From a virus (taxonomy: Duplodnaviria; Caudoviricetes), in IMG/VR virus record IMGVR_UViG_3300005805_000094, positions 1 through 60,647 of that record: a DNA stretch of 60,647 nt. One strand, given 5' to 3'. The notes beneath the pieces are model-generated. The model did not search any database, was not told the origin of the DNA, and worked only from the letters and a program-made list of their open reading frames with translations. Of the stretch, positions 23,055 through 57,948 are shown piece by piece. The first letter of the stretch is position 1, and every line of letters begins with the position of its first letter. The translations under genes were made by a program, and so were the position numbers.

Positions 23055-23077
23055 ACATCAGGTACATAGGAGAATAT

Positions 23078-38298: not shown

Positions 38299-38760
38299 AT
38301 GACGAGATTTGTAGGAACCCCGCTACGCGGGATTGAGTTTAGTAGCGCAAGCGATGAGGCTATTTCCGCTCGCGTAAATAACGATGCTCATCCCCGAGTA
38401 AGAATTGACGCCGGCGGACGACTTACTTGGTCATCTGGTTCAGTAGCCGGAGATACGACACTCTATCGAATTTCTGCAAATACCCTGTATACAGATGATG
38501 TATTTCAGGCCGCATTAGGACTTGTTACTCTTACGACTAGCGGCACCCCATCAGCAACACTTCCAAACGGCGCTTTGGCCGTAGATACAACAAATAACAA
38601 GTTCTTTTTTAGGTCAAATTCTCAGTGGACAGAAGTATCCGGAATCGGAAGTGGTGGCTTACTGTCAGGCGATGTAGATGGTGGTAATCTCTCTCCTGAG
38701 ATTTACGAAGCAGAAGTAACAAACTATGTAATCGTGGGATTTGATGGAGGTACGCTGTAA
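38299..38760 (+). CDS. Virion structural protein
   Basis: Ser/Thr/Gly-rich, in the fibre operon. Confidence 0.7.
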   Translation: MTRFVGTPLRGIEFSSASDEAISARVNNDAHPRVRIDAGGRLTWSSGSVAGDTTLYRISANTLYTDDVFQAALGLVTLTTSGTPSATLPNGALAVDTTNNKFFFRSNSQWTEVSGIGSGGLLSGDVDGGNLSPEIYEAEVTNYVIVGFDGGTL

Positions 38761-41700
38761 TGGCTGGTGCAAGGATTCAACTTAAGCGTGCCACTGCTGC
38801 TTCGTGGGCATCCAACAACCCAGTTCTTTACGCTGGCGAAATTGGTCTAGAAACCGATACCAACAAATTTAAGATTGGTGACGGCACTACTGCGTTTAAC
38901 TCCTTGCCGTACTTCAATGGCAACCTTACTGGTTCTAGCCTCAACGACCTTGCCGACGTAACAATTGTTTCTGCGTCCAACGGCGATTTCCTTCGCTGGA
39001 ACGGCTCTGCTTGGATTAACGATGCCGTAAATCTTTCGACCGACACAGTCGGTAATTACATGGTTGATGTCGCTGGAGGTACTGGCGTAACAATTAGTCA
39101 CACCCCAGGTGAAGGTTCTACAGCATCAGTTGCAATTGGTCAGGATGTTGCCACTAGCGCTTCCGTAACATTTGCTCATGTTAACGCTGATGTAAGTGGC
39201 GATGTTCTTGGTGACTTAACTGGTAATGCAGATACAGCAACAACGCTGGAAACAGCACGAGTAATTGAATTAAGTGGTGACGTTACTGGTTCAGTTTCAT
39301 TTGATGGTTCTACAAATGTTAACATTGTTACGACTGTCGTTAGCGATGGAGTCGAACTTGGTGTTAACACCACAGGAAACTACATGGTTGATGTGGTTGC
39401 TGGCACTGGCGTAACTGTTACACATACTCCTGGTGAAGGTTCAAGTGCGTCTGTGGCAATTGGACAAGATGTTGCAACTTCTGCGTCTGTTGAATTTGCA
39501 GCATTGACTGTTGCTGGACTTACAGAAGTTGGTGGACACATCCTGCCTGACGCAACTGAAACATATGACCTTGGTTCTGCTTCTGCTCGCTTCCGTGATA
39601 TTTATCTTTCTGGAACAAGTATCAATCTTGGTGGAGCAGAAATCACCAGTGACGGAGTAACAATTACGTTCCCTGGTGGTTTGACTGGTGATATCGCTGG
39701 TAATGCCGATACGGCATCAGAACTTGAAACAGCACGCATAATTTCGCTTGGCGGTGACTTGTCTGGTTCGGTTTCATTTGATGGCTCACAGAACGTCACA
39801 ATTACAGCCGAGGTTCAGCCAAATAGTGTTGCGCTAGGCACAGACACGACTGGCAATTACATGTCAGACCTCACGCAGGGAACCGGTGTAACAATTACAC
39901 ACACCCCAGGGGAGGGCTCCAACGCCACAATAGCAATTGGTCAGGCGGTCGGGACATCGTCGTCTGTAACATTTGCGCACGTAAACGCAGATGTAACTGG
40001 GGACCTTACTGGTAATGCAGATACAGCCACAACTCTCCAAACTGCACGAGCAATTTCTCTTGCTGGAGATTTGTCGGGTTCAGTTTCGTTTGATGGCTCT
40101 CAAAATGTAACTATCACTGCGCAAGTAGAGCCGAACTCTGTCGCTCTTGGAACAGATACGACCGGAAACTTTATGTCCGATGTCGTTGCTGGTACAGGTG
40201 TTTCTATTACTCATACTCCGGGTGAAAGTTCGTCGGCATCTATCGCAATTGGACAGGCTGTTGGCACAACCGACAACCCTTCTTTTGCCGGGCTGACCGC
40301 AGACGGCGTTCAGATTGGTATTTCGAATACAACAGAAATCGATACTGTCAGCGGAAATCTAACTATCGATTCTGCTGGCGGAACCACGACACTTGACGAT
40401 GATGTTGTTATTACAGGAACTCTTACCGTCAGTGGAAGTGCGACATATATAAATACAGAAATACTTACAGTTGATGACAATATTATTGTTCTTAACAATA
40501 ATCAGACTGGTTCGCCATCTCAAAATGCCGGCATTGAAGTAGAGCGGGGCTCATCAGACAATGTTTCAATTAGGTGGAATGAAGCAAACGATTCATGGGA
40601 ACTCACCGAGGATGGTTCAACATATCGCAATATTGCCGCAGGTCAAGATGTTGAGACATCTTCATCTGTAAGTTTTGCGGCTGTTACTGCACCAGTCATT
40701 GGAAATGCATCAACAGCGACAACACTTGAAACAGCACGAGCAATCAGTTTAGGTGGAGACCTTTCGGGTTCTGCCTCATTCGATGGTTCTGCAAATATCA
40801 CAATTACTGCTGATGTTCAGCCGAACAGCGTTGCCCTTGGAACAGATACAACCGGTAATTATCTTGTTGATGTCGTTGCAGACTCATCGGGAATTACTGT
40901 AAACCATACAGCGGGTGAAGGCTCCTCCGCCTCTTTGTCTCTTGTTCAGGACATTAATACCTCTGCTTCTGTCACATTTGCAAACGTAACTGCTGACCTT
41001 GTTGGAGATGTCACTGGTAATTCAGACACAGCATCAACACTTCAGACAGCACGAGCAATTTCTCTTGGCGGAGACCTCAGTGGCTCTGCATCTTTTGATG
41101 GTTCAACAAATATCACTATCACTGCTGACGTTCAACCAAATAGCGTTGCTCTTGGTACTGATACAACTGGAAACTTTGTAAATGATGTCATTGCAGGCAC
41201 TGGAGTTACTGTCAGTCACACACCCGGCGAGGGTTCAAGTGCAAGCATCGCAATCGGACAAGATGTTGCAACCACAGCATCTGTAACTTTTGCTGCAGTA
41301 ACTGCACCGGTAATTGGGAATGCAAGCACAGCAACAACCTTGCAAACATCGAGAGCAATTTCTCTTACTGGCGACCTTAGCGGCTCTGTTTCATTTGACG
41401 GTTCTCAAGATGTGAGCATTACCGCAACTGTTCAACCAAATAGCGTTGCTCTTGGAACTGACACCACTGGCAATTATGTTGCTGATGTAGTTGCTGGTAC
41501 CGCAATAACTGTTACGCACACACCAGGAGAGGGTTCAAGTGCATCGATTGCTCTCAACGCGGCCCTAAATGACCTCACCGATACGGTGATTACTAGCCCA
41601 GAAGAATTCCAGGGTCTTTCATATAACGGCACAAGTTGGATTAACCAGTATTCCCCTGTCGTTAGTTATGTCCAAAACGCTGAAGCGACCACCCTCACGA

Positions 41701-44700
41701 CGGGAACAGTCGTTTACCTGTTTGGCGGCACTGGCGACCATGCGTCAGTAAAACGTGCTGACAATAGTTCTGACTTAACATCCTCCAAGACTGTCGGACT
41801 GGTCGGTGCAAACATTGCCGCATCTCAAAACGGTCCAGTAATTACTCGTGGTTATGTTGACGGAATTGACTTGTCCGTCGGTTACTCCGCTGGCGACGTT
41901 CTGTGGCTCGGCGAGAATGGCGCATTCACAACAACCAAGCCAAGCGCTCCAGACCACCTTGTATTTGTGGGCGTTGTCGTTCGCGCAACCGTTAACGGCA
42001 TCATTTATGTCGCCACACAGAATGGCTATGAACTCGAAGAACTTCACGACGTCAAAATAATCAGTGCTGCAAATGGCGATTTCCTTAAGTACAACAGCGC
42101 ATCTGCAGTTTGGGTAAATGACCAAATTAATCTTGGGACAGACACAGTTGGTGACTATGTCCAGAATCTTGTTGCTGGAACTGGCGTAACTCTTTCCAAT
42201 AACAGCGGTGAGGGTTCAACCCCAACAATCGCAATCGGTCAGGCTGTTGGTACTTCTTCGTCTGTTGTTTTCCACACAATTGAGTCAACTCATGACTTAA
42301 CAATTGGTGGAAACCTTTACGTAAGTGGCTCTGTCATTACCGAAAATCAAACAAGCCTTGCAATTGATGACCCGTTCATCTACCTCAATGTCTCAAGCAG
42401 CGTTTCGAACGTTGACCTTGGTATCGCAGGAAACTACAACGACGGCACTTACCGACATGCTGGTGTTTTCCGCGATGCAACTGACGGGAAGTTCAAGTTT
42501 TTTGATTCTTACGAGCCTGAACCATCAAGCCCGATTGATGTTGCCCACGCTACATATTCTCCAGCACCAGTAGTTGCTGAGACTTTTGAAAGCACAGTCA
42601 CAACCGGAACTGCGCCATTTGCGGTTTCGTCAACAACAGAAGTAGCCAATCTTCATGCTGATACTGCGACAACCCTACATACTGCTCGCGCCATTTCACT
42701 CGGCGGAGATTTGTCTGGTTCGGCTTCGTTTGATGGCTCTGGCGACATCACGATTACCGCTTCGGTTGAACCAAATTCAGTTGCTCTTGGCACAGATACA
42801 ACGGGCAACTACATGGTGGGATTGGCTGAAGGTACTGGTGTAACCATTACCCACACCCCAGGTGAAGGCTCAACAGCATCTGTTTCTATTGGACAAAGCG
42901 TGGCTACCACTGCTTCTGTGACATTTGCTCATGTGTCTGCCGATTTGACCGGCAATGTCACCGGAAATATTTCTGGCAATGCAGGGACTGCTAGTGCACT
43001 TCAGAGTGCACGAACTATCTCTCTTGGTGGAGACTTGTCTGGTTCGGTGTCATTTAACGGAACCTCCGATGTAACAATCACGGCATCCGTTGAGCCAAAC
43101 AGTGTTGCCCTTGGTACGGACACAACTGGCAACTATATGTCGGACCTCACTCAGGGTACCGGTGTCACGATTACGCATACGCCTGGCGAAGGTTCAAATG
43201 CAACAATCGCAATCGGTCAGGCTGTTGGTACTTCTTCGTCTGTCACGTTCGCTCATGTTTCTGCACCAATCACAGGAAATGTAACTGGAGATTTGACAGG
43301 CAATGCTGGAACTGCAACTGCCCTCCAGACATCGCGCACAATCAATCTTGGTGGAGACCTTTCGGGTTCTGCATCGTTCAATGGAACTTCGGATGTAACG
43401 ATTACTGCAACAGTGCAGCCCAACTCTGTTGCTCTTGGTGCAGACACGACCGGTAATTTTGTTTCCGATGTAGTTTCTGGAACGGGTGTAACAGTAACGC
43501 ATACTCCTGGTGAGTCGTCATCTGCTTCGATTGCGATTGGTCAAGACGTAGCAACTACTGCCTCTGTGACTTTTGCGCATGTTTCAGCCCCTGTAACTGG
43601 AAACGTGACAGGCAATGTCACTGGTGATGTTTCTGGGAATGCAGGAACCGCCACGGCGCTACAAAACTCACGTGCGATTAGTCTTAGTGGCGACCTTAGC
43701 GGCTCAGTATCTTTCAATGGAACATCTGATGTAACAATCACTGCGACAGTCCAGCCAAACTCTGTCGCTCTCGGCACAGACACTACCGGCAACTATATGT
43801 CAGGTGTTACTGCTGGCACTGGCGTAACCGTTACACATACACCTGGTGAAGGTTCTTCAGCAACTATTGCTATCGGCCAGGCAGTCGGCACATCTGATAA
43901 CCCATCATTCGCTGGAGTTACGGCAGACGGTGTTCAGATTGGCATTTCGGCATCAGCAGAAATTGATACAACTGCTGGCAATCTCGTAATTGACTCTGCA
44001 GGTGGAACAGTCACAATCGACGACAACCTCATTGTTTCTGGCGACCTGACAGTCAACGGAACAACAACAACTGTTAATACAGAAACAATCAATCTTGCCG
44101 ACAACCTCATTGTTCTGAACAGCAACGAGACTGGCGCCCCATCACAAAACGCCGGACTTGAAATCGAGCGAGGCTCTTCCACAAACGTAGCGTTGCGCTG
44201 GAATGAAACTTCGGATAAGTGGGAACTCACTGAAGACGGTTCAACATATGTAGATATTGCAACTGTTAGTTATGTTGATGCTCAGACGATTAACAGTCTT
44301 GACGAAATCGGTGATGTTTCGACAGCATCTGCTGCATCAGGAGATTTCCTCAAGTGGAACGGTTCAGCATGGGTGAATGACCCAATCAATCTGGGTAGCG
44401 ACACTGTTGGCAACTATGTCAATGACGTAACAGCGGGCACTGGTGTTACTGTAACTCACACCCCGGGTGAGGGTTCAAGTCCAACCATTGCAATCGGCCA
44501 GGCCGTTGGGACATCATCCTCGGTAACTTTTGCTGCTGTTACTGCTCCACTGATTGGCAACGTAACTGGCAATGCCGACACCGCTACGGCACTTGCTATA
44601 TCGCGCACGATTGAACTGACTGGTGATGTAACTGGTTCAGTTTCCTTCAACGGTTCGGCTAACGCATCAATCACCGCAACTATCGCAGCGAATAGCGTCG

Positions 44701-46316
44701 CTCTCGGCACTGATACCACAGGTAATTACGTCTCTGATGTAACCGGCGGAACTGGTGTAACGGTCACGCACACACCAGGCGAGGGTTCGTCGCCAAGTAT
44801 CGCAATCGGTCAATCAGTTGCGACTTCATCTTCTGTTCAGTTTGAGGCTGTTGAACTTGGTCACGCATCAGATACAACACTGTCACGTTCTGCTGCTGGC
44901 AGACTCGCCGTTGAAGGTGTTAATGTGCCGACAATTTCGTCGACCGACACCCTTACCAATAAGACTCTTAGTAGCGCGACGCTTACTGGAACACTCACCG
45001 CTGGTGGTGGAACTGGAACGTCAGGTCAGTTCCTAAAGACAACCGGAACCGGAGTTGAATGGGCTGCTGTTGGCGCTGCCGTTACTACGACAACCCTCTC
45101 TGCAAATACAGAGACCACCGTTGCTACGTTTACAACTGCAAGCGCAAAAGCGGCAGAGTTCCATGTGAAGGTCGGTCAGGGTGACCGTCTATATTCAACA
45201 AAAGTTCTTGCTCTTCATAACGGCAGTACTGCTGACTTTACTAAGTATGGAGAACTATCAATTGGCGGACAAGAAGCAGTGGCTGGAACTGGCGCTGTAA
45301 CTTGGGTAACACGAACATCAAACTTTGCAAATGCTTTTTTTGGAGGCATCTATGCTGCCGCCTACGGCAACGACGTTTGGGCTATTGGTGGATACTACGG
45401 CAGAATTATTACTTCAACCGACACAATAACTTGGACCACACGCACCTCAAACTTTAGCCCCAATTATCCCAGTGCTGTGTATGCTTTGGGTCATGGCAAC
45501 AACCTTTGGGTTGCTGGTGGGCAAGGTGGTCAACTTCGCACCTCTACCGACGCTATTACTTGGGTAACACGAACATCAAACTTTGGTAATTATCGTATTG
45601 TGGAAGTTGCCTACGGCAACAACCTGTGGGTTGCTACTGGATTCGATGGTCAAATCCGCTCTTCAACAGACGCAATAACTTGGGTAACACAAACATCAAA
45701 CTTTGGTAATACAATAGTCCGCTCCGTTGCCTACGGCAATAACCTCTGGGTTGCTTCTGGATACTACGGTCAACTCCGTACGTCGACAGACGCAATTACT
45801 TGGGTAACTCAAACCTCAAACTTTACTGGGGCCATCGTTGCCGTAGCCTACGGCAACAACCTTTGGGCTATTGGTGGTGCCGAGGGTCGACTCCGCACTT
45901 CTACTGACGCAATAACTTGGGTAACACGAACCTCAAACTTTAGTAATAGTATCAATGAAATTGTTTACGGCAACGGTCTTTGGGTCGGTGCTGCACGAAA
46001 CGGTGAAATCCGCACATCAACCGACGCAATCACTTGGACTACTAGAACTTCAAACTTTGTAGACACTTCAAATGGAAGTATCTTCGGGCTCACCTACGGC
46101 GACAATTTCTGGGTTGCTGCTGGCAATTACGGTCAACTTCGCACCTCTGCTGTAGACACCGCTGCTGTATATGTTGGCGGTTTGACATCATCTGCCTCCG
46201 TTACGTTCAATACAGATATTTCTGGTTCCGATGTTCGTTTGCGCATGACGATTCCAGATGCCGCGACAACTAATGCAACTGTTAAAGTTTCGACAACAAC
46301 TGTGGGAGAATCGTAA
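38760..46316 (+). CDS. Giant fibre: Mtd-like N-terminus, ~14 shaft repeats, C-terminal 7-bladed beta-propeller
   Basis: IQLKR.TAA.W...NPVL..GEIG.ETDT.KFKIGDG; repeated HTPGEGSS unit; 7 Asp-box-like blades. Confidence 0.88.
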   Translation: MAGARIQLKRATAASWASNNPVLYAGEIGLETDTNKFKIGDGTTAFNSLPYFNGNLTGSSLNDLADVTIVSASNGDFLRWNGSAWINDAVNLSTDTVGNYMVDVAGGTGVTISHTPGEGSTASVAIGQDVATSASVTFAHVNADVSGDVLGDLTGNADTATTLETARVIELSGDVTGSVSFDGSTNVNIVTTVVSDGVELGVNTTGNYMVDVVAGTGVTVTHTPGEGSSASVAIGQDVATSASVEFAALTVAGLTEVGGHILPDATETYDLGSASARFRDIYLSGTSINLGGAEITSDGVTITFPGGLTGDIAGNADTASELETARIISLGGDLSGSVSFDGSQNVTITAEVQPNSVALGTDTTGNYMSDLTQGTGVTITHTPGEGSNATIAIGQAVGTSSSVTFAHVNADVTGDLTGNADTATTLQTARAISLAGDLSGSVSFDGSQNVTITAQVEPNSVALGTDTTGNFMSDVVAGTGVSITHTPGESSSASIAIGQAVGTTDNPSFAGLTADGVQIGISNTTEIDTVSGNLTIDSAGGTTTLDDDVVITGTLTVSGSATYINTEILTVDDNIIVLNNNQTGSPSQNAGIEVERGSSDNVSIRWNEANDSWELTEDGSTYRNIAAGQDVETSSSVSFAAVTAPVIGNASTATTLETARAISLGGDLSGSASFDGSANITITADVQPNSVALGTDTTGNYLVDVVADSSGITVNHTAGEGSSASLSLVQDINTSASVTFANVTADLVGDVTGNSDTASTLQTARAISLGGDLSGSASFDGSTNITITADVQPNSVALGTDTTGNFVNDVIAGTGVTVSHTPGEGSSASIAIGQDVATTASVTFAAVTAPVIGNASTATTLQTSRAISLTGDLSGSVSFDGSQDVSITATVQPNSVALGTDTTGNYVADVVAGTAITVTHTPGEGSSASIALNAALNDLTDTVITSPEEFQGLSYNGTSWINQYSPVVSYVQNAEATTLTTGTVVYLFGGTGDHASVKRADNSSDLTSSKTVGLVGANIAASQNGPVITRGYVDGIDLSVGYSAGDVLWLGENGAFTTTKPSAPDHLVFVGVVVRATVNGIIYVATQNGYELEELHDVKIISAANGDFLKYNSASAVWVNDQINLGTDTVGDYVQNLVAGTGVTLSNNSGEGSTPTIAIGQAVGTSSSVVFHTIESTHDLTIGGNLYVSGSVITENQTSLAIDDPFIYLNVSSSVSNVDLGIAGNYNDGTYRHAGVFRDATDGKFKFFDSYEPEPSSPIDVAHATYSPAPVVAETFESTVTTGTAPFAVSSTTEVANLHADTATTLHTARAISLGGDLSGSASFDGSGDITITASVEPNSVALGTDTTGNYMVGLAEGTGVTITHTPGEGSTASVSIGQSVATTASVTFAHVSADLTGNVTGNISGNAGTASALQSARTISLGGDLSGSVSFNGTSDVTITASVEPNSVALGTDTTGNYMSDLTQGTGVTITHTPGEGSNATIAIGQAVGTSSSVTFAHVSAPITGNVTGDLTGNAGTATALQTSRTINLGGDLSGSASFNGTSDVTITATVQPNSVALGADTTGNFVSDVVSGTGVTVTHTPGESSSASIAIGQDVATTASVTFAHVSAPVTGNVTGNVTGDVSGNAGTATALQNSRAISLSGDLSGSVSFNGTSDVTITATVQPNSVALGTDTTGNYMSGVTAGTGVTVTHTPGEGSSATIAIGQAVGTSDNPSFAGVTADGVQIGISASAEIDTTAGNLVIDSAGGTVTIDDNLIVSGDLTVNGTTTTVNTETINLADNLIVLNSNETGAPSQNAGLEIERGSSTNVALRWNETSDKWELTEDGSTYVDIATVSYVDAQTINSLDEIGDVSTASAASGDFLKWNGSAWVNDPINLGSDTVGNYVNDVTAGTGVTVTHTPGEGSSPTIAIGQAVGTSSSVTFAAVTAPLIGNVTGNADTATALAISRTIELTGDVTGSVSFNGSANASITATIAANSVALGTDTTGNYVSDVTGGTGVTVTHTPGEGSSPSIAIGQSVATSSSVQFEAVELGHASDTTLSRSAAGRLAVEGVNVPTISSTDTLTNKTLSSATLTGTLTAGGGTGTSGQFLKTTGTGVEWAAVGAAVTTTTLSANTETTVATFTTASAKAAEFHVKVGQGDRLYSTKVLALHNGSTADFTKYGELSIGGQEAVAGTGAVTWVTRTSNFANAFFGGIYAAAYGNDVWAIGGYYGRIITSTDTITWTTRTSNFSPNYPSAVYALGHGNNLWVAGGQGGQLRTSTDAITWVTRTSNFGNYRIVEVAYGNNLWVATGFDGQIRSSTDAITWVTQTSNFGNTIVRSVAYGNNLWVASGYYGQLRTSTDAITWVTQTSNFTGAIVAVAYGNNLWAIGGAEGRLRTSTDAITWVTRTSNFSNSINEIVYGNGLWVGAARNGEIRTSTDAITWTTRTSNFVDTSNGSIFGLTYGDNFWVAAGNYGQLRTSAVDTAAVYVGGLTSSASVTFNTDISGSDVRLRMTIPDAATTNATVKVSTTTVGES

Positions 46317-46318
46317 TC

Positions 46319-47602
46319 ATGGCTGAAAAAAACTTTGTAGTCAGCAAAAGTATTGTTGCAGATAATGTTGGCGAAATTGTAGAAACAACCGTAACCGCAA
46401 ATACCGCTACTACAGTTGCCTCATTCCCGCTGTCTGATTCCGATACGGTTGAATTTACCGTAAAAGCAACACAGGGAGACCGTAGGTATTCCAGTAAGGC
46501 TCTTGCTCTACATAACGGAACAACTGTTGATTTGTCTCAGTATGGAGAATTATCAATTGGTGGAACAGAAGTAGAAGTAGTTGCAGGTACTGGTGCTGTA
46601 ACTTGGGTAACCCAAGAATCAAACTTTAGTACTCCACAAATCCAATCCGTCGCTTACGGCAACAACCTCTGGGTCGCTGGTGGAGCGAATGGTCGACTCC
46701 GCACCTCTACTGATGCAGTGACTTGGGTTACACAAACCCCAAACTTTGATACTTATCAAATCCAATCCGTCACCTACGGTGACAACATCTGGGTTGCTGG
46801 TGGATACTTTGGTCAACTCCGCACCTCAACAGATGCTATCACCTGGGTAACCCAAACCTCAAACTTTAATAATAATTATTCTGGAGACATCCTCTCCGTT
46901 GTCTACGGCAACGACCTCTGGGTTGCTGCTGGAACCTATGGTCAACTCCGCACCTCAACCGACACAATAACTTGGGTAACACAAGAATCAAACTTTCCAA
47001 ATAATTATTCTGGTGGGTCCATCGAATCCGTTGCCTACGGCAATAACCTTTGGGTTGCTGTTGGAAGTTTTGGTCGACTCCGCACCTCTACTGACGCTGT
47101 AACATGGGTAACCCAAGAATCAAACTTTACACCTGACAACTACGGGAAAATTTACTCCGTTGCTTACGGCAATAGCCTTTGGGTTGCTGCTGGATATGGT
47201 GGTCAACTCCGCACCTCAACTAACGCAACAACTTGGACTACTCAAACCTCAAACTTTGGTAACTCACATATCCAATCCGTTGCCTACGACAACAACCTCT
47301 GGGTTGCTGGTGGTGCCGGTGGTCAAATCCGCACCTCTACTGATGCAATCACCTGGGTAACACGAACCTCAAACTTTGGTAATACAACTATCCAGTCCGT
47401 CGCCTACGGCAACAGTCTGTGGGTCGCTGCTGGATATGAGGGTCAACTTCGCACCTCTGCTACGGATACCACATCGTCAGTTGTAGAAATGCCGCTCACT
47501 CTGTCCGCCGATATCTCAGGCTCAGATGTACGACTTCGTGCAACTATTACAGACGCCGCAACTACCAATGCTGAGGTAAAGGTACTTAAGACAACCCTGT
47601 AA
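46319..47602 (+). CDS. Beta-propeller repeat protein (7 blades), putative receptor-binding
   Basis: 7 x TW.T..SNF..SVAYGNNLWVAGG..GQLRTSTD. Confidence 0.85.
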   Translation: MAEKNFVVSKSIVADNVGEIVETTVTANTATTVASFPLSDSDTVEFTVKATQGDRRYSSKALALHNGTTVDLSQYGELSIGGTEVEVVAGTGAVTWVTQESNFSTPQIQSVAYGNNLWVAGGANGRLRTSTDAVTWVTQTPNFDTYQIQSVTYGDNIWVAGGYFGQLRTSTDAITWVTQTSNFNNNYSGDILSVVYGNDLWVAAGTYGQLRTSTDTITWVTQESNFPNNYSGGSIESVAYGNNLWVAVGSFGRLRTSTDAVTWVTQESNFTPDNYGKIYSVAYGNSLWVAAGYGGQLRTSTNATTWTTQTSNFGNSHIQSVAYDNNLWVAGGAGGQIRTSTDAITWVTRTSNFGNTTIQSVAYGNSLWVAAGYEGQLRTSATDTTSSVVEMPLTLSADISGSDVRLRATITDAATTNAEVKVLKTTL

Positions 47603-47649
47603 TAAAAAGTGATATTATTGTTTCTACATCAACGGGAAAGTGAACAGCG

Positions 47650-49818
47650 ATGGCAGATAAAAATTTCAAGGTAAAAAACGGCTTAGACATTGGAGACAAT
47701 GTCGCCACGTCTGTTACTAAGACGACTATCAATAGAACCTCAGAAACAACCCTTGACTCCGTACTAACTGGGACTATTAAGTCCGCCGATTATTCGCTAA
47801 CCCTATATCAAGGGAATACTGGTGTTGTAGGCAAAAAGTATTTTTTTACCGAAAATGGTACTGGCGCATCAATCCAAGAATACGCTTCTATCTCTGTAAA
47901 TAGAGAAGAATACATTACGCCTAACGATGCAAGCATTTGGACAACCCGCACATCAAACTTTGGTAATAGAAGAATCTACTCCGTTGCCTACGGCAATAAC
48001 CTTTGGGTTGCTGCTGGGTACTACGGTCAACTTCGTACCTCAACCGATGCAATAACCTGGACTACAAGAGCGTCAAACTTTCCAAGTAATTATAGTGGAG
48101 TCATCCGCTCCGTTGCCTACGGCAACGTCTGGGTTGCTGCTGGGTACTACGGTCAACTTCGTACCTCAACCGATGCAATAACCTGGACTACAAGAGCGTC
48201 AAACTTTGGTGGTTATGCACAAATCCGCTCCGTTGCCTATGGCAACAACCTTTGGGTCGCTGGTGGAAGCAGTGGTCAACTCCGTTCCTCAACCGACGCT
48301 ATTACTTGGGTTACAAGAACGTCAAACTTTGGTAACTCACAAATCCGCTCCGTTGCCTATGGCAATAACCTTTGGGTGGCTGGTGGATACAGTGGTCAAC
48401 TTCGTACCTCAACTGACGCAGTAACTTGGGTAACACGAACATCAAACCTTCCAAATAGTTTTTCTGGAAGAATCGATGCCGTAGCCTACGGCAACAACCT
48501 CTGGGTCGCTGGTTCCCGCTCTGGTCAACTCCGTACCTCTACCGACGCAGTCACTTGGACTACTCAAACCTCAAACTTTGCTAATAACGTCAACATCCTC
48601 GCCGTTGCCTACGGCAACAACCTCTGGGTTGCCGGGGGGGGTTATGGTCAACTTCACACCTCAACCGACGCTATTACTTGGGTAACACGAACATCAAACT
48701 TTGGTAATACAACTATCAACTTCTTTGCCTACGGTGACGCCGTCTGGGTTGCTGCTGCTGACAATGGTCAACTCCGTACGTCATCTGCTCAACTATTTTC
48801 ACCAGCGGCAGTTCCAGCAACAGTTTCAGTTGCACTGGTCCAGACTTGGGTTACACGAACCTCAAACTTTGGTAATTACAGCAACAACAACATTAACTCC
48901 GTTGCCTATGGTGACGCCGTTTGGGTTGCTGGTGGAAACTCTGGTGAACTTCGTACATCAACCGACGCAGTAACTTGGACTACACGAACATCTAACTTTA
49001 CTTCACACATTCGCTCCGTTGCCTACGGCAATGGCCTCTGGCTTGCTGCTGGTGGTATGTATCAGGCCAATGGTGAACTTCGCACCTCTACCGACGCTAT
49101 TACTTGGGTAACTCAAACCTCAAACTTTGGTAATACACGCATCAACGCCGTTGCCTACGGCAACAGCCTTTGGGTTATTGGTGGGGATTATGGTCAACTT
49201 CGTACCTCCACTGACGCAGTAACTTGGGTAACACAAACATCAACCTTCGACCAAGATTTTACTGGAAAAATCAACTGCGTCGCTTACGGCAACAACCTCT
49301 GGGTTGCTGGTGGGTACAGAGGTAAACTTCGCACCTCAACTGACGCAATCACTTGGACCACAAGAACCCCAAACTATGGCAATTTTCCATCTATCCTCTC
49401 CGTTGCTTACGGAGATAACGTGTGGGTTATAGGTGGCGCTTATAACGCCAGTGAAATTCGTACCTCAACAGACGCAATTACCTGGGTTACACGCACCTCA
49501 AACTTTGTAGGGGCTAATCAGCAAGTCAACTCCGTTGCCTATAACAACAATTTTTGGGTTATAGGTGGGTCCTCAGGTCAAATTCGTACCTCAACAGATG
49601 CAATAACTTGGGCAACCCAAACCTCGAACTTTGGTACTACATTTATCGGGTCCATTGCCTACGGCAATAGTCTGTGGGTGGCTGGCGGTGGTGCTGGTAA
49701 AATTGCTACAGAAAACCCAGCAGAACGTCAACTAAAACTTACGGCAACCGTGACTAATGCAGGCATATCTGGCTCCGAAGCAACAGCGATTCTAAAGAAA
49801 GAAACGGTTGTTGCATAG
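47650..49818 (+). CDS. Double beta-propeller repeat protein (2x7 blades)
   Basis: 14 blade repeats; MADKNFKVKNGL N-terminus. Confidence 0.85.
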   Translation: MADKNFKVKNGLDIGDNVATSVTKTTINRTSETTLDSVLTGTIKSADYSLTLYQGNTGVVGKKYFFTENGTGASIQEYASISVNREEYITPNDASIWTTRTSNFGNRRIYSVAYGNNLWVAAGYYGQLRTSTDAITWTTRASNFPSNYSGVIRSVAYGNVWVAAGYYGQLRTSTDAITWTTRASNFGGYAQIRSVAYGNNLWVAGGSSGQLRSSTDAITWVTRTSNFGNSQIRSVAYGNNLWVAGGYSGQLRTSTDAVTWVTRTSNLPNSFSGRIDAVAYGNNLWVAGSRSGQLRTSTDAVTWTTQTSNFANNVNILAVAYGNNLWVAGGGYGQLHTSTDAITWVTRTSNFGNTTINFFAYGDAVWVAAADNGQLRTSSAQLFSPAAVPATVSVALVQTWVTRTSNFGNYSNNNINSVAYGDAVWVAGGNSGELRTSTDAVTWTTRTSNFTSHIRSVAYGNGLWLAAGGMYQANGELRTSTDAITWVTQTSNFGNTRINAVAYGNSLWVIGGDYGQLRTSTDAVTWVTQTSTFDQDFTGKINCVAYGNNLWVAGGYRGKLRTSTDAITWTTRTPNYGNFPSILSVAYGDNVWVIGGAYNASEIRTSTDAITWVTRTSNFVGANQQVNSVAYNNNFWVIGGSSGQIRTSTDAITWATQTSNFGTTFIGSIAYGNSLWVAGGGAGKIATENPAERQLKLTATVTNAGISGSEATAILKKETVVA

Positions 49819-49825
49819 AAATTTG

Positions 49826-50746
49826 CTAGATATTTTCTAACACTTGTTTCCACTGTTTAACAATTCTATCCCACGAATAAAAGTGGTTAAAGTATTGCGA
49901 CTGTTGTTGAAGCATTGGCTCATCATCCCAATAGTTATCAATGGCTTGATTTAATGCCGATGCATACTTTTCAGCGATTCTTTTCTTATCAATCTGTATC
50001 GGTACAAGTGTCGCAAACTCTCCACCAGTTTCAGCCAAGGCCCCAAGGTTTTGCCCGATAAGCCGACATCCAGCCGCCCCAGCCTCAATCATTGCCAAAC
50101 AGCAAGTCTCTTCAAACATGCTTGGGTAGGCAAAGATGTGTGATTGCTGTAATGCTTGAGTAACTTCGGTATTTGGTGCGTACCCCATATAAAAAACATT
50201 CTTCATGTTCTTGGCTCGCTCAAACAGCGCCGCGTAATCACTACCGTGCTTTAGGTCGTAATCGGTCCCATAGACAATCGTGGAAGAATAAACATAGAGT
50301 TCCACATCGTCACGTTCAAGCAACTCAAACGAATCAAGCAGTACATCTAATCCACGAAAAGGCGCAGATGTATAGATAAGGCGAATCTTCTCGCCCTTCT
50401 TGCGCTGTTGGTATTTAACTGGCTCAATAGCGTTTTTAATTACATGTGCATTATCTACTGGAATGTGGTACACATAACGAAACTTTTCATGCTGCCAATG
50501 GGACACATAGACATAAGCATCAATGCAACGGGTGAAGAACTTATTGGTCATTCCCTGCGTCAATGGCTCGTTGTAGTTTAAGTGTTGCCAAAGGATGTTC
50601 TTTTTGCTTGAATCAATCTGGTCTTCAATACAGCGAGAGAGAATTAAATTTACGTTGTAGTCGTCGAAATTAATTCTCTTGCGTAATCCTTCTTCCATGA
50701 TGTCTGAACCACCACGGGGTGGCAATTTGCCGCTTAACTCGGCCAT
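49826..50746 (-). CDS. Glycosyltransferase (GT-B)
   Basis: YTS.P.RGL, YPS.FEET.C..IEA.AAG. Confidence 0.85.
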   Translation of the reverse strand: MAELSGKLPPRGGSDIMEEGLRKRINFDDYNVNLILSRCIEDQIDSSKKNILWQHLNYNEPLTQGMTNKFFTRCIDAYVYVSHWQHEKFRYVYHIPVDNAHVIKNAIEPVKYQQRKKGEKIRLIYTSAPFRGLDVLLDSFELLERDDVELYVYSSTIVYGTDYDLKHGSDYAALFERAKNMKNVFYMGYAPNTEVTQALQQSHIFAYPSMFEETCCLAMIEAGAAGCRLIGQNLGALAETGGEFATLVPIQIDKKRIAEKYASALNQAIDNYWDDEPMLQQQSQYFNHFYSWDRIVKQWKQVLENI

Positions 50747-51405
50747 CGCAACTTCACTGTCTTTTGATGACCAACACGAACGAGCGGGTCAACCCAGATG
50801 TCAATTCCCATCTGATACACCTTTTCGCACCACGACGTATCTTCGCCCATAAGTGGAAATTTATATTCCTTTTCTCCTGTTTCAGGATTTTGAATTGTTA
50901 CGTGAGTAGAGGAAAACCACGGACGTTCAAGGCGTTCAAATACTCCGCAAGCAACTGCCAAAAATCCAAACCCAACTCCACGAGTAGTGAATGGCGCCTT
51001 AAGTTTTAAGATGTCGTTCTTATGTAGTGGCGGACCAAGCGGAACAGGGTACACCGTTACTTCTTCGCTCTCCATCATGTAGCACCCGGAGATGACTTGT
51101 TTGTCTGAGTTTAGAAGTCTGAAGAAGTCATCTGGCTCCCATTCAATGTCTGAGTCAATCCAGAACAACTTGTCGTATGTCCACTCGCCATTGCCTGGCT
51201 TGCGACAGTTTTTGTCATTGAAGGCACTTCCGCCAACTGTTCGCTCTCGGGCATCAGCCACGTGCGAGGAGTACTCAGTCATGAAGTTCCAAGTGATGTT
51301 GTTTTGGTTCATGTAATAGGTGACTTTCAACAGGCTCCGAACGTAGGCGGGAACCATGCTTGAGCCAGGGGTGCAGATAACTACATTAAAGTGTGGAATT
51401 GTCAT
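50734..51405 (-). CDS. Glycosyltransferase (GT-A)
   Basis: WIDSDI DxD, GFGF, GED..WC. Confidence 0.8.
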   Translation of the reverse strand: MTIPHFNVVICTPGSSMVPAYVRSLLKVTYYMNQNNITWNFMTEYSSHVADARERTVGGSAFNDKNCRKPGNGEWTYDKLFWIDSDIEWEPDDFFRLLNSDKQVISGCYMMESEEVTVYPVPLGPPLHKNDILKLKAPFTTRGVGFGFLAVACGVFERLERPWFSSTHVTIQNPETGEKEYKFPLMGEDTSWCEKVYQMGIDIWVDPLVRVGHQKTVKLRWPS

Positions 51406-51462
51406 AGGGTCATTCTATACATGCTCACTTAAGACGCGGCGGTATGTGTTATCATTTTACCT

Positions 51463-52113
51463 ATGAAACTACACGGAACTTACGCCTTCAACGAGGCTCT
51501 CGCAACAACAATCGCCACGGCGCTGAACGCCTCGTATTCGGACAAAGCGTCTGGACACGAGTACGAAAAAGTATTCGCTCATCTGTTTGAGGGCAAGACC
51601 GTAAACAACTTTCTTGAAGTAGGTCTTTTCCTGAACGAACTTCAGCACACCGACCTCAACGCATGGACATCGGTATTCCCATCTGCAAATATCTACGGCG
51701 CAGACAAGAAAGAATCACAATTATTTAATTCTGGCAATATCAGAACGCATGCAGTCGACCAAGAAGTCCCAGCATCGTTTGATGCTCTCAAGGCAGAATT
51801 TGACGTTGAGTTTGACGTGGTTCTTGATGATGCTTCACATGTCTACGCAAATACCATCGCAACATTTGAAGCACTCTTCTCAGCAGTAAAAACTGGCGGA
51901 ATGTACTTGATTGAAGACATCCAAGATGCTGGTGAAGGCGCAAACGATTGGCAGCATACGCTTGTGCAACTTGAGGCTTATATGACCGCACAAGGTCACA
52001 CCTATGAAGTGTTCCAGTCGGTTGTTCCCGGAAAAGTAATGGACCGAGAAACACAAGAACCAACAGATGTTGACAGGGTTTCAGACAGTTATATCCTCTG
52101 CGTTTACAAGTAA
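51463..52113 (+). CDS. SAM-dependent methyltransferase
   Basis: H.YE..F, LEVG, FD.VLDDASH, GG.Y.IED. Confidence 0.8.
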   Translation: MKLHGTYAFNEALATTIATALNASYSDKASGHEYEKVFAHLFEGKTVNNFLEVGLFLNELQHTDLNAWTSVFPSANIYGADKKESQLFNSGNIRTHAVDQEVPASFDALKAEFDVEFDVVLDDASHVYANTIATFEALFSAVKTGGMYLIEDIQDAGEGANDWQHTLVQLEAYMTAQGHTYEVFQSVVPGKVMDRETQEPTDVDRVSDSYILCVYK

Positions 52114-52181
52114 GAAAAGAGTTTTACTATGTTGCTAGTTTTAGGCGCGTGTTTCAGTCTAGGTGAACGGAGTACCCGTTC

Positions 52182-54299
52182 ATGGCTGATAAAAATTTCA
52201 AGGTAAAAAACGGCTTAGATATTGGAGACAATGTCTCTACGTCTGTTACCAAAGTAGTAATTGATACTGCTTCAGAAACGACCCTTGACTCTGTACTGAC
52301 TGGCACTGTTAAGTCCGCCGACTATTCGCTGACCTTGTTTCAGGATGCTGGGGTAATTGGCAAAAAGTATTTTGCTACCGAAAATGGTTTAGGTGCTTCA
52401 ATCCAAGAGTACGGTTCGGTGTCTGTAAATAGAAGTGAATATTCTGGTGTGTGGATTTGGACTACCAGAACCTCAAACTTTGGTACCTCCAGAATATCGT
52501 CCATTGCCTACGGCAACAGTCTCTGGGTTGCTGGTGGAAGAGGTGGAAATCTCCGCACCTCTACAGATGCAATAACTTGGACAACCAGAACTTCAAACTT
52601 TGGTAATGCATATATCTATTCCGTTGCCTATGGCAACAACCTTTGGGTTGCTAGTGGTATGACTGGTCAAATCCGCTCTTCAACTGACGCAATAACTTGG
52701 GTAACACAAACTTCAAACTTTGGTAATTCACAAATCTTCTCCGTTGCCTACGGCAACAACCTCTGGGTTGCTGGTGGTTACTATGGTCATCTCCGCACCT
52801 CAACCGATGCTGTTACTTGGACTACACGCACCTCAACCTTTCCTAATAATTATATCGGAGGCATCTTCTCCATTGCCTATGGCAACAACCTGTGGGTTGC
52901 TGTTGGAAGAGGTAATCTCCGTTCCTCTACTGATGCAATAACTTGGACAACACGAACCTCAAACTTTGGTGGCTACACATACATCAACTCCGTTGCCTAC
53001 GGCAACAACGTTTGGGTCGCTGGTGGGGGATATCATTCTGCTGGTCAAATCCGCACTTCTACCGACGCAGTTACTTGGACAACCCGAACATCGAACTTTG
53101 GTAATACAGGCATCAACTCCGTCGCCTACGGCAACAGTCTCTGGGTTGCTGGTGGACAAATGGGTCAAATCCGCGCCTCAACTGATGCAATAACTTGGAC
53201 AACCCGACCATCAAACTTTGGTGATACACAAATCTTCTCCGTTGCCTACGGCAACAACGTTTGGGTTGCTGGTGGAAACTATGGAGAACTCCGCTCCGCC
53301 AGTGAAATAAATCCACCAGCGGCGATTCCAGCAACAGTGTCATTGAGTCTCCAACAGACATGGACTACTCAAACCTCAAACTTTGGTCCATACGATTCCA
53401 TCCATTTCGTTACCTACGGCAACAACCTCTGGGTTGCTGGTGGGGACTATGGTCAACTTCGTACTTCAACCAATGGAGTAACTTGGGTGACACAAACATC
53501 AACCTTTGGTAATACACGCATCCGCTCCGTTGCCTACGGCAATAACCTCTGGGTTGCTGGTGGTGGTCAGGGTTTGGCTGGTCAAATTCGTACCTCAACC
53601 GACGCAATAACTTGGGTAACACAAACTTCAAACTTTGGTTTTCAAAGCGTCCACTCCGTTGCTTACGGCAACAGTCTCTGGGTTGCTGTTGGACAAATGG
53701 GTCAAATCCGCACCTCAACCGATGCTGTTACTTGGGTAACACAAACTTCAAACTTTGGTGATACAGGCATCCGCCAAGTTGCCTTCGGCAATAATCTCTG
53801 GGTTGCGGGTGGGTACGGTGGTCAACTCCGCACTTCAACCGACGCAGTTACTTGGACAACCCGAACATCAAACCTTTCGGAAAACATTGGTGCCGTCGCT
53901 TACGACAACAACCTCTGGGTTGTTGGTGGTGGTGTGGGTCAACTCCGCACCTCAACAGATGCAATAACTTGGACTACGAGAACTTCAAACTTTGGTAATG
54001 CAGGCATCCTCTCTGCTGCTTACGGCAACAATCTCTGGGTTGCTGCTGGAGCCTATGGTCAACTCCGTACCTCAACCGACGCAATTACTTGGGTTACAAG
54101 AACATCAAACTTTGGTACTAGCGAAATCCTCTCTGTTACCCATGGCAACAACCTCTGGGTTGCTGTTGGAATCGGTGGTCAAATTCGCACAGAAAGCATA
54201 TCACAACGACAACTGGCACTTATGGTAACCGTTACCAACGGCAGTGTGGCTGGCTCAGAAGCGACTGCGATTCTAAAGAAAGAAACGGTTGTTGCATAG
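52182..54299 (+). CDS. Double beta-propeller repeat protein (2x7 blades), paralog of 47650..49818
   Basis: Near-identical N- and C-termini, 14 blades. Confidence 0.85.
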   Translation: MADKNFKVKNGLDIGDNVSTSVTKVVIDTASETTLDSVLTGTVKSADYSLTLFQDAGVIGKKYFATENGLGASIQEYGSVSVNRSEYSGVWIWTTRTSNFGTSRISSIAYGNSLWVAGGRGGNLRTSTDAITWTTRTSNFGNAYIYSVAYGNNLWVASGMTGQIRSSTDAITWVTQTSNFGNSQIFSVAYGNNLWVAGGYYGHLRTSTDAVTWTTRTSTFPNNYIGGIFSIAYGNNLWVAVGRGNLRSSTDAITWTTRTSNFGGYTYINSVAYGNNVWVAGGGYHSAGQIRTSTDAVTWTTRTSNFGNTGINSVAYGNSLWVAGGQMGQIRASTDAITWTTRPSNFGDTQIFSVAYGNNVWVAGGNYGELRSASEINPPAAIPATVSLSLQQTWTTQTSNFGPYDSIHFVTYGNNLWVAGGDYGQLRTSTNGVTWVTQTSTFGNTRIRSVAYGNNLWVAGGGQGLAGQIRTSTDAITWVTQTSNFGFQSVHSVAYGNSLWVAVGQMGQIRTSTDAVTWVTQTSNFGDTGIRQVAFGNNLWVAGGYGGQLRTSTDAVTWTTRTSNLSENIGAVAYDNNLWVVGGGVGQLRTSTDAITWTTRTSNFGNAGILSAAYGNNLWVAAGAYGQLRTSTDAITWVTRTSNFGTSEILSVTHGNNLWVAVGIGGQIRTESISQRQLALMVTVTNGSVAGSEATAILKKETVVA

Positions 54300-54343: not shown

Positions 54344-55003
54344 ATGCATCAAACAACAACTACCTCTTCTGAGTCCATAAAGCATAATAAACTCGCAGTT
54401 TTCTATCACCTATATCAACACGGTGATTGGGGAAATCTTTTAGCCGAACAGTCTCAACTCCTAGTTAATTCTGGACTTGCCGAAGCATGTGAGTTCATTC
54501 ATGTTGGCGTAAGCGGAAATGATATCCCAGAGTCGTTCGGTAAGTTTAGGTTCATCAAGAACGAAGAACCCTGGACGGAAGAGACGCCGACCCTTACTGC
54601 TTTAAAAGATTTTTGCGCACACAACGACAACTATTCAGTCTTATACATGCACACAAAAGGCGTTACTCAGCCCATGCAATCAACATATGACTGGCGCAAA
54701 ATTATGGAATATTTTTGCATAGAAAAATGGCAAGATGCTGTTGAGAAACTACAAGAACATGACGCCGTTGGGTGTCTATATATGGACCACTGTTACTACG
54801 GATACTTCCCGCACTTCTCTGGAAATTTCTGGTGGTCTAATGCTTCTTATGTCAACCATCTAAACCACTCATACCTAACGGATGGCATTCGTCAAAACAG
54901 GGAGTTTTGGATAGGTACTGGTGGTGGCTCTTTATATAGTTTTCACACCACTGGCCTTAATCATTATGCGCATGAATACCCGCGCAGTTTGTATGCGAAC
55001 TAA
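54344..55003 (+). CDS. Glycosyltransferase-like protein
   Basis: VLYMHTKG, WR..MEYF, HFSGNFWW motif family. Confidence 0.6.
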   Translation: MHQTTTTSSESIKHNKLAVFYHLYQHGDWGNLLAEQSQLLVNSGLAEACEFIHVGVSGNDIPESFGKFRFIKNEEPWTEETPTLTALKDFCAHNDNYSVLYMHTKGVTQPMQSTYDWRKIMEYFCIEKWQDAVEKLQEHDAVGCLYMDHCYYGYFPHFSGNFWWSNASYVNHLNHSYLTDGIRQNREFWIGTGGGSLYSFHTTGLNHYAHEYPRSLYAN

Positions 55004-55683
55004 TCAAGCCATTCGTGGTCAATGCGACGCTGTAGGTCGTACTGAAGACAATTGACGTGAGGATTGTCGGCGACACTCTTGGCAAACCTGTACTCAGCAT
55101 TCCGCTTATTGGTGAACACGTTCTTTTCGTAGAACTTCCTATCGCTATGAACAGTCATTGAGGCTTGGACTTGATAGATAGCAGAGGTTGACCAGACAAT
55201 GTTTTTATCAAGACCCGCGTATTGAATGCGAAGCATGTAGTCGCTGTCTTCGCTGTAGGCAGGATAAAAGTTTTCATCAAACAAGCCAATCTGTTTTACT
55301 ATGTCGCTACCAAGCGAGAACCCGTTCCATGCCTGATTTGACATAACTAGTTTGTCGGGTGCGGACAATTCGGACATTTCTTTTAACCCACCCGGCATCC
55401 AGTGATTATCGTTTGAAGAAATCAACCAATACGGCGCATGTGGGAAACACTTAATTCCAAGATTCCACGAGCCAGCAACGCCCATATTCGCTGGCATGTT
55501 CAAGACCTGACACTTTGTGTTCTTTAGGTTTTCGTGAACTTTTAGGTTTGAGGGCATCTGATACGAGTTGCTGTTATCAATAATCAGTAAATTATCAATC
55601 GGATAATCCATGCACTGGATTGCTTGTTCCAGCATGTCGAATCTATTGAGAACTGGAATTATTACTACGGGAATTGACTCCAT
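55000..55683 (-). CDS. Glycosyltransferase family 2
   Basis: IPVLNR.D, IIDN, GVAGSWNLG, IGLFDENFYPAY.ED.DY. Confidence 0.85.
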   Translation of the reverse strand: MESIPVVIIPVLNRFDMLEQAIQCMDYPIDNLLIIDNSNSYQMPSNLKVHENLKNTKCQVLNMPANMGVAGSWNLGIKCFPHAPYWLISSNDNHWMPGGLKEMSELSAPDKLVMSNQAWNGFSLGSDIVKQIGLFDENFYPAYSEDSDYMLRIQYAGLDKNIVWSTSAIYQVQASMTVHSDRKFYEKNVFTNKRNAEYRFAKSVADNPHVNCLQYDLQRRIDHEWLD

Positions 55684-56405
55684 TACTTATATGACTTCTT
55701 CTTCCAGAACTGCATTTGATACGAACGGATTATCTTGCCCTTAAGCAAGAAACCCTGCTTCTTGTTTTCTTGTTCATCAAATTCGGTGGTCGAACTAGCC
55801 CAATCGTCACGGCGGAATGGAATGACTTGACAAATGGGCGTACCCTTTTCAAGTATTACCAAGTCTTTGTTGGTATCCAAAAGACGGAACGGGAACTCAA
55901 CACCCAACTTGTACGAGTCGGTATCTACGACGCCAGACAAAGTTGCAAATGGTAAATCAAAACGATTCAAGGGGTGAGTAAATAGGCAACTATATCCAGG
56001 AGGTGTAATCATGCGCCAACCAGGACTCCATTTAAGGATGTTTGGGCTTGCACCTTGTGGAATTGGCAAGCCTGGCGCTTGGTCAGGGCCGTGCTGCCCA
56101 ATCAAGTTTTGGTTTGTTGCCCAGCGCAACCCAACTTGACCCTTGTCGTTCTTGCGAATTTCTATATCGAAAGGAAGCGTGAACATATACCCAGATGTCA
56201 TTGCATCAAGGAACGGCATACATCCCTTGAGGGTTAGGTTGCTTACAGCAACGCCATCGGGAGACAACCCAGTGACTGTTTCTCCGGGAAGGTGTAATGA
56301 CATGCTTTTATACCACTCTGGCAAATGCTCCGCAGCCGGGCTTGGCTTTTCGTACAAAAGACCAGCGTCTTCAGAAAAGGGTTCAAAGATTACATGTTTA
56401 GTCAT
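55683..56405 (-). CDS. DUF6065-like protein
   Basis: PEWYK, K.CMPFLDAM..GY, TPPGYSCLF.HP.N, KGTP..QVIPF. Confidence 0.6.
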   Translation of the reverse strand: MTKHVIFEPFSEDAGLLYEKPSPAAEHLPEWYKSMSLHLPGETVTGLSPDGVAVSNLTLKGCMPFLDAMTSGYMFTLPFDIEIRKNDKGQVGLRWATNQNLIGQHGPDQAPGLPIPQGASPNILKWSPGWRMITPPGYSCLFTHPLNRFDLPFATLSGVVDTDSYKLGVEFPFRLLDTNKDLVILEKGTPICQVIPFRRDDWASSTTEFDEQENKKQGFLLKGKIIRSYQMQFWKKKSYK

Positions 56406-57923: not shown

Positions 57924-57948
57924 GCCGACAGTCTAGTATGTCTAGACA

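Follow-up and report, generated by a model that had tools for sequence, protein, structure and literature searches.

Four genes (gA, gB, gC, and gD) of an uncultured tailed phage encode six seven-bladed β-propellers built from 42 blades with a common framework, and we think it likely that these propellers are host-binding tail-fiber heads that diversify by ordinary recombination among repeats. The genes lie in the IMG/VR virus record IMGVR_UViG_3300005805_000094, the whole of which (60,647 bp; from here on, the window) was analyzed and the completeness of which is estimated by CheckV at ~38%. The window encodes a tailed-phage head/neck module (small and large terminase, portal, protease, major head protein, adaptor, and tail terminator), after which comes the fiber-gene block, and near-identical DNA is present in four lake-water metagenome runs from one study. 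The phage is a large, uncultured lake phage of ~160 kb. The nearest matches of its portal, at ~39% identity over half of the portal length, are phages of Actinobacteria (Gordonia, Streptomyces, and Brevibacterium), and the host is, on this sequence likeness, probably an actinobacterium. Most phages of abundant freshwater bacteria have not been cultured. A megablast search of the region against isolate phages returned no match.

Blades were located both with a residue-pattern anchor and with a profile hidden Markov model (HMM) built from the blades, and the two methods agreed on 7, 7, 14, and 14 blades in gA, gB, gC, and gD, respectively. This is the count of six seven-bladed propellers in four genes given by a first-pass annotation of the same DNA, which had placed the array at positions 45295-54200; we find the blades at 45300-54197. 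Successive blades are spaced by 39-44 amino acids (aa), apart from a gap of 55-56 aa between blades 7 and 8 of gC and gD, where the two rings are set apart by a 17-18-residue linker. In a six-frame scan of the window, all 42 blades scored at least 20 bits and any other match scored 6.6 bits or less, and every blade lies within an intact open reading frame. The framework motifs are TW.T.TSNF, AYGNNLWVAGG, and GQLRTSTDA, and the constancy claimed earlier for the first and last of these is borne out by a mean column entropy of 0.69 bits at 33 framework columns, compared with 2.93 bits at 7 variable columns. The further claim that the framework is alike even at the DNA level also stands, as its nucleotide identity between blades averages 0.78 (range 0.61-0.94), compared with 0.664 expected for the same proteins with the codon usage of the window and 0.707 with the usage pooled over the blades. 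Because none of 200 simulations under either codon null reached the observed identity, the DNA similarity of the framework is real and position-specific. A repeat search recovered 34-36 DNA copies of the blade at 60-86% identity. Synonymous divergence between blades in the framework amounts to a proportion of synonymous differences (pS) of 0.44 and a corrected distance (dS) of 0.66, and the blades are neither near-identical nor young copies.

Each blade carries two variable loops, which differ in length as well as in sequence (3-8 residues in loop 1 and 1-6 residues in loop 2). Loop 2 has two residues in 36 of 41 parsed blades. Loop 1 has four residues (mostly G-N-x-x) in half of the blades (21/42) and seven residues of the type P-N-N-Y-S-G-x in another 10/42, and, because it keeps to a few recurring length and sequence classes, it is less free than the term “hypervariable” in the first-pass annotation implies. 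The loops had also been described as rich in Y, N, S, R, and G; we find G, N, Y, and S enriched (Y 4.1-fold and N 3.4-fold) but not R (0.7-fold). At the seven variable positions, the ratio of nonsynonymous to synonymous differences (pN/pS) is 1.09, with both terms close to saturation.

The AlphaFold2 model of gB, built with 20 homologs, has a predicted local distance difference test (pLDDT) score of 86.3 and a predicted template modeling (pTM) score of 0.71, and in it the strands of a β-sandwich (residues 21-87 and 384-426) enclose a run of seven four-stranded blades. The first propeller strand (96-99) has no preceding partners and the last blade has three strands (358-380), which the first strand completes, so that the ring is predicted to be closed “velcro”-style. 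In the model of gD (pLDDT 73.1; pTM 0.52), 14 blades of four strands each are seen and the linker contributes a strand of eight residues (384-391), as would be expected if the sandwich carried one insert in each of two successive loops. Because a four-stranded meander puts successive loops on alternate faces, the topology of the gB model places loops 1 and 2 on the same face, in agreement with the shared face on which the reading in the first-pass annotation depends, and would place the G-N-N turn and the Asp-box-like turn on the opposite face. If the Asp-box lies between strands C and D, as we take it to do in this class, the variable loops would be D-A and B-C, that is, the canonical binding face.

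The Asp-box motif is S-x-D-x-G-x-T-W. At the corresponding positions, the 42 blades have S in 39, D in 34, and W in all 42 cases, with A, I, or V where glycine is usual, and the motif of the relatives is frequently S-T-D-G-T-T-W. A Foldseek search of the PDB returned WD40 proteins, designer propellers, and Ycf48 (target-normalized TM-score 0.68-0.75), and a family profile (alignment A1) matched the PDB sequences of Ycf48 chains at E values of 5.6e-6 to 4.4e-5 and the designer protein Ika8 at 2.1e-6. By profile and by model, the propeller is a remote relative of the Asp-box/Ycf48 propellers. No window protein matched Pfam BNR, and gB, gC, and gD did not match PSII_BNR at E ≤ 0.01; PSII_BNR does match one homolog (P0111) with 28.5 bits against a cut-off of 27. 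Whole-protein scores for Kelch_6 (cut-off 25.3 bits) were 32.3, 40.5, and 28.3 bits, with no single stretch passing alone and the match spanning just ~20 profile positions around an h-h-h-G-G strand. A search against NCBIfam gave noise only.

The small domain that flanks the propeller also exists without it. In 15 loci of other phages, the domain is uninterrupted, ends reading frames of 244-2172 aa, and is accompanied by no blades. In a BLASTP comparison with one of these loci (L010), residues 39-79 and 394-421 of gB, which flank the propeller, align collinearly with residues 166-206 and 213-240 (E values 6e-8 and 0.004), so that ~314 propeller-containing residues replace a turn of ~7 residues. 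The alignments and the gB model together confirm that the propeller is an insert in a small C-terminal β-sandwich that ends many phage fibers; the first-pass annotation had proposed insertion in a shared small domain. We found no family name for this tip domain.

Relatives of the module likewise point to fibers. At least 679 relatives of gB were found at E ≤ 1e-5 among 8000 candidates scored; their precomputed domains include Collar, Mtd_N, Kelch, and PSII_BNR, and Pfam PF25852 occurs on many homologs. The best fold matches in BFVD are phage fiber, baseplate, and collagen-like proteins at 20-33% identity. In gA itself, the Mtd_N domain scores 45.9 bits in Pfam, and its PHROG matches are tail-fiber and minor-tail families. 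The lake phage DSL-LC01, which infects Actinomycetia (OQ999401.1; L093, 5980-6852), has a homolog between collagen-like fiber genes; this gene, which is annotated as “photosynthesis system II assembly factor” and goes unmentioned in the paper on that genome, is probably a misannotated fiber head. Among 220 proteins or reading frames that match the blade, the blade number is 7 in 81, 14 in 6, and 21 in 2 cases, and many of the others are fragments. The two 21-blade (three-ring) reading frames are L036 3745-6990 and L038 1040-5389. In the latter, the protein sequences of blades 3 and 7 do not differ (100% identity), many further pairs reach 85-97%, and this array is much younger or more homogenized than that of the window. 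A metagenome scan with alignment A2 gave 115 pattern matches, none of which was confirmed, and a scan with alignment A3 gave 69 loci; no locus contained a blastn segment of at least 100 bp at 88% identity or more. A syntenic relative (L004; 160,282 bp, with an estimated completeness of 100%) carries 56 blades, distributed over six genes that surround the same glycosyltransferase/methyltransferase cassette.

The propellers could be associated with the virion without being the primary receptor binders, as a weakly glycan-binding decoration or as an enzyme such as a glycosidase, which we consider unlikely. Asp-box propellers include sialidases and GH74 enzymes, and the propeller genes are interspersed with genes for glycosyltransferase, methyltransferase, and sulfotransferase enzymes. 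However, the blades are near-equivalent repeats without a unique catalytic set, no glycoside-hydrolase family was matched in Pfam or NCBIfam, the module sits at the extreme C terminus of a 2518-aa fiber, and the pattern of divergence is that expected for determinants of specificity.

We instead favor the view that the propellers are host-binding fiber heads, for which we propose the following mechanism. One or two seven-bladed Asp-box/Ycf48-like propellers would have been inserted in loops of the small C-terminal β-sandwich of a fiber, the 40-residue repeat being strand D of one predicted blade and strands A-C of the next. The canonical binding face of each propeller would then display 14 loops enriched in Tyr, Asn, Gly, and Ser. 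This face may bind a structure on the host surface, most likely a glycan, and six distinct propellers could provide several specificities or high avidity per virion. Over evolutionary time, the propellers would change by homologous exchange among many similar blades, which would homogenize blades across paralogous genes within one genome, move whole propellers, or segments of several blades, relative to the scaffold, and allow gain or loss of blades in units of seven, and by mutation and selection on approximately five positions per blade.

Several comparisons bear on this mode of change. When gB is aligned with four relatives of 69-76% overall identity (P0001, P0004, P0005, and P0011), invariant residues number 78 among the first 80 and 36 among the 38 at positions 390-427, and all seven blades differ. 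In five loci with DNA, propeller identity is 55-72% and scaffold identity ranges from 53% to 97%, and in two of the five the propeller resembles that of gB more than the scaffold does. These protein alignments show the history of the propeller to be decoupled from that of the scaffold. Positional correspondence between blades is also largely lost. For gD and its syntenic counterpart in L004 (D1), the positional partner is the best match for just 1 of 14 blades (mean identity 0.702 on the diagonal and 0.694 off it), and between gB and P0001 the diagonal signal is kept in blades 5-7 only (69%, 75%, and 82%). Further, blades 4-5-6 of P0004 (encoded, like gB, by a stand-alone gene) resemble blades 2-3-4 of P0008 (a fiber C terminus) at 80%, 93%, and 77% identity with a rare long loop included, and this three-blade segment, shared out of register, has, judging from the match, moved between gene contexts.

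On a tree built from 123 blades of three genomes, changes of the genome label number 32, compared with 54.0 ± 2.8 in 300 shuffles (minimum 45), and those of the gene label number 80, compared with 84.9 ± 2.5. The blades group by genome and hardly by gene, a pattern consistent with concerted evolution. Individual framework residues follow the genomes: V at framework position 3 occurs in 23/42, 4/56, and 1/22 blades of the three genomes, and F at position 19 occurs in 1 of the 42 blades of the window compared with 14 of 56 in the second genome. One recent exchange between neighboring blades is visible in gC as an exact direct repeat of 78 nt. It is bounded by the two most conserved DNA words of the blades, beginning in the one that encodes W-V-A and ending in the one that encodes S-N-F, so as to include loop 2 and end at loop 1; none of 100 codon-permuted nulls gave an exact run of 60 nt or more. 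For the blade shuffling or gene conversion suggested in the first-pass annotation, the clustering by genome, the out-of-register segment, and the 78-nt tract are signs of exchange between blades, but on an evolutionary scale: blade exchange is not frequent, because dS between blades is 0.66.

A number of points weigh against recombining host-binding heads as the explanation. All relatives are metagenome assemblies, in which repeats may be mis-joined. The loss of positional orthology could partly be saturation, and the clustering by genome may in part reflect genome-specific codon bias, codon uniformity being stronger in the window (same-residue codon identity: 0.645 for the window by itself, 0.49 for L004 by itself, and 0.55 when the two are compared). 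There are 16 exact runs of at least 30 nt between blades, which exceeds the null mean of 5.85 and stays within the null range (maximum 18); the 78-nt tract is the sole one clearly beyond the null, among blades that differ by the dS given above. Pairs of blades with at least 85% identity share a ring position no more often than expected by chance (99/654), and blades close to the consensus resemble each other anyhow. A pN/pS so near saturation cannot separate diversifying selection from relaxed constraint. The placement of both loops on one face is derived from strand topology rather than measured, with strand names that depend on the Asp-box placement assumed above, and the assignment of the host depends on the ~39% portal identity. 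The analysis shows the anatomy, the fold, the fiber context, the separate histories of propeller and scaffold, and the lack of DGR features, whereas host binding, the nature of the ligand, docking by the N-terminal peptide, and the host are what we infer.

A bolder form of the same idea, which we regard as doubtful, is that the 42 blades are a germline repertoire reshuffled among the four fiber genes fast enough to matter within a bloom, with the conserved DNA words that flank the loops acting as recombination anchors, and that a single lineage could in this way go on making virions with new combinations of binding faces without a reverse transcriptase or a dedicated recombinase.

Very unlikely, in our judgment, is a programmed or high-frequency generator that exchanges blades among paralogs to make receptor variants within one population, in the manner of variable lymphocyte receptor (VLR) assembly or pilin antigenic variation. 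Such a generator would be in keeping with the abundance of similar repeats across four genes, in which conserved DNA words lie beside the loops, with the exact tract between neighboring blades, with the grouping of blades by genome, and with the PD-(D/E)XK exonuclease and single-stranded DNA-binding protein (SSB) encoded in the window. However, lamprey VLR assembly requires an incomplete gene and silent cassettes, and silent blade cassettes were found neither in the six-frame scan of the window nor in the complete 160-kb relative, where 22 of 22 matches lie inside its six propeller genes. Neither a site-specific recombinase nor other dedicated machinery was apparent beside the propeller genes in the Pfam and PHROG annotation, and the synonymous divergence between blades speaks against such a generator as well. 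The contigs of the four lake runs show 0 differences from the window over the longest listed pieces, although contigs break at repeats and cannot show rare variants, and the few contig differences in propeller genes lie 33-49 letters from contig ends. The analogy to antibodies and VLR assembly drawn in the first-pass annotation is not supported, given the absence of silent cassettes, the location of all 42 blades in intact frames, the divergence of the blades, the single tract beyond the null, and the lack of usable variation within the population in the contigs of the four lake runs. The likeness is one of architecture (constant framework and variable loops on one face) and not of mechanism, and VLR-like programmed assembly is without support.

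In contigs of one lake run (X2; window positions 48062-49640 and 53434-53977), frameworks like those of the window are joined over other loop 2 letters, with short sides of 24-57 letters. These alternatives may be other blades, blades of related phages, or real variants.

Diversity-generating retroelements (DGRs) depend on a reverse transcriptase together with a template repeat, from which changes arise specifically at adenines, and we consider it highly improbable that the propellers are targets of a DGR, the template repeat and reverse transcriptase of which lie in the unsequenced part of the genome. It is true that gA starts with Mtd_N, a domain named after a DGR target, and that the window covers just ~38% of the genome. 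Against this, a search for RVT_1 found no match in the window, where the first-pass annotation had also noted no reverse transcriptase, or in any of three related records, one of which has an estimated completeness of 100%, with control genomes detected. Further, 27% of blade-to-blade mismatches fall at A, compared with an A content of 25%, and the strongest ordered pair reaches 56% at one base. In addition, the variation includes length changes and covers 8.9 kb, unlike a short variable region. Because neither RVT_1 nor an adenine bias was found, the DGR reading, which the first-pass annotation had named as the alternative source of the variation, is refuted as far as it can be tested. Like the VLR and DGR/Mtd systems, the propellers have a constant framework with variable residues on what would be one binding surface, but the cassettes, reverse transcriptase, and adenine-specific changes of those systems were sought here and not found.

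We give practically no credence to an auxiliary metabolic role as a Ycf48-type photosystem II assembly factor, which is suggested by the source names of relatives (“photosystem II stability/assembly factor-like” and “photosynthesis system II assembly factor”) and by the remote sequence and fold similarity to Ycf48, but is contradicted by the insertion of the propeller in a fiber-tip domain fused to a fiber shaft, the lack of a PSII_BNR match at E ≤ 0.01 among window proteins, the six copies per genome, and the Actinobacteria phages to which the portal is related.

Our literature searches found no description of this propeller family on phage fibers. In fold and remote homology, its closest known counterparts, by profile and model, appear to be Ycf48/HCF136 and other Asp-box (BNR) propellers (2xbg, 5ojp, 5ojr, and 8am5), with which it shares seven four-stranded blades and an Asp-box-like turn. 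It differs from Ycf48 in its degenerate Asp-box (S-T-D-A-I-T-W), which lacks glycine at the usual place, in blades that are far more alike mutually, in its insertion as a domain in a fiber tip, and in having no photosynthetic context.

In role, the closest analogs would be the propeller heads of other fibers. The receptor-binding protein of the Staphylococcus aureus phage φ11 reportedly contains a five-bladed propeller, and fibers of extracellular contractile injection systems (eCIS) are described in the passages cited as carrying β-propeller lectins on collagen-like shafts (PMC12923769). As in the phage fibers studied here, the propeller of these systems lies at or near the distal fiber end and is the presumed or shown glycan-binding part, but the propeller family and the blade number differ. 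The eCIS passages make no mention of multi-gene arrays of near-identical blades or of insertion in a β-sandwich tip (PMC12923769). The β-propeller of phage SU10 was considered and set aside as unrelated, being part of a nozzle protein.

In mechanism, the closest analog appears to be the HNWD/het-d/het-e family of Podospora anserina, in which, according to the passages cited, concerted evolution affects the WD repeats of ten genes, and four interaction-face residues in each repeat are under diversifying selection (PMC1805685). The likeness would consist in propeller repeats spread over several genes with concerted evolution within and between loci, in few, highly variable positions on the interaction face, and in a repertoire that arises from a high supply of mutations, reshuffling of repeats, and selection, with no dedicated machine (PMC1805685). 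The fungal system differs in that it serves intracellular allorecognition, uses WD40 repeats that are much more alike in DNA, and has established positive selection, compared with a saturated pN/pS of 1.09 here (PMC1805685). The phage blades, unlike those of HNWD, are of an Asp-box-like type, are carried on a fiber, and form fixed rings of seven.

If the propeller is indeed a receptor binder, the module, a seven-bladed propeller plugged into a common fiber-tip domain in up to six copies per genome, marks host-range genes in many metagenomic phage genomes. It would also add a viral case to the pattern of fungal WD-repeat recognition genes, in which a multi-gene pool of blades varies one binding face. 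The evidence argues that labels such as “photosystem II assembly factor” on relatives are misannotations. The very regular 40-residue blade could further interest protein designers.

The features of the region are collected in Table 1. The cassette between gC and gD is syntenic in L004 with a protein identity of 86-93%. Genes for GT1, GT2, two phrog_7162 glycosyltransferases, a methyltransferase-like protein, a sulfotransferase, and a DUF6065 protein lie among or after the fiber-tip genes.

Table 1. Coordinates of the propeller genes, their parts, and other features of the window
Feature	Position	Strand	Description
gA	38760..46316	+	2518-aa giant fiber protein: Mtd_N-type N-terminal domain, long repetitive shaft, C-terminal tip module; 7 blades at aa 2181-2464 (profile HMM)
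gA shaft	38760-45290		many repeats, each ~90 residues
β-sandwich halves flanking propeller 1	~45072-45299 and 46152-46313		recognized by similarity to gB
Propeller 1	45300..46151	+	7 blades, C-terminal end of gA
gB	46319..47602	+	427-aa stand-alone tip module; scaffold N-half aa 1-94, scaffold C-half aa 383-427
N-terminal peptide of gB	46319-46366		~16 residues
Propeller 2	46601-47464		gB aa 95-382
gC	47650..49818	+	722-aa double-propeller tip protein, 14 blades; linker aa 381-398
Common start of gC and gD	47650-47720 and 52182-52252		71 nt, 93% DNA identity
Propeller 3	47935-48789		gC aa 96-380
78-nt exact direct repeat	48004-48081 and 48130-48207	+	joins neighboring gC blades
Propeller 4	48844-49722		gC aa 399-691
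Cassette between gC and gD	49826..52113	mixed	three genes
GT1 glycosyltransferase	49826-50746	-	cassette between gC and gD
phrog_1574 protein	50734-51405	-	cassette between gC and gD
Methyltransferase-like protein	51463-52113	+	cassette between gC and gD
gD	52182..54299	+	705-aa double-propeller tip protein, 14 blades; linker aa 376-392
Propeller 5	52455-53306		gD aa 92-375
Propeller 6	53358-54197		gD aa 393-672
Stretches with glycosyltransferase and neighboring genes	49826-52113 and 54344-60126
Sulfotransferase	57036-57923
HNH endonuclease	11455-11925		next gene after that of the large terminase
PD-(D/E)XK exonuclease and SSB	21748-23497		near each other

No annealing protein was recognized between the exonuclease and SSB genes. 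Inside the gA shaft, the lake-run contigs show many skips and back-joins. We note that gB, gC, gD, and their relatives start with a similar peptide (M-A-D/E-K-N-F-.-V), and that the gB model has a pLDDT below 50 over its first 15 residues. This peptide may be a virion-docking peptide, by which the gB, gC, and gD proteins would be attached to the virion.

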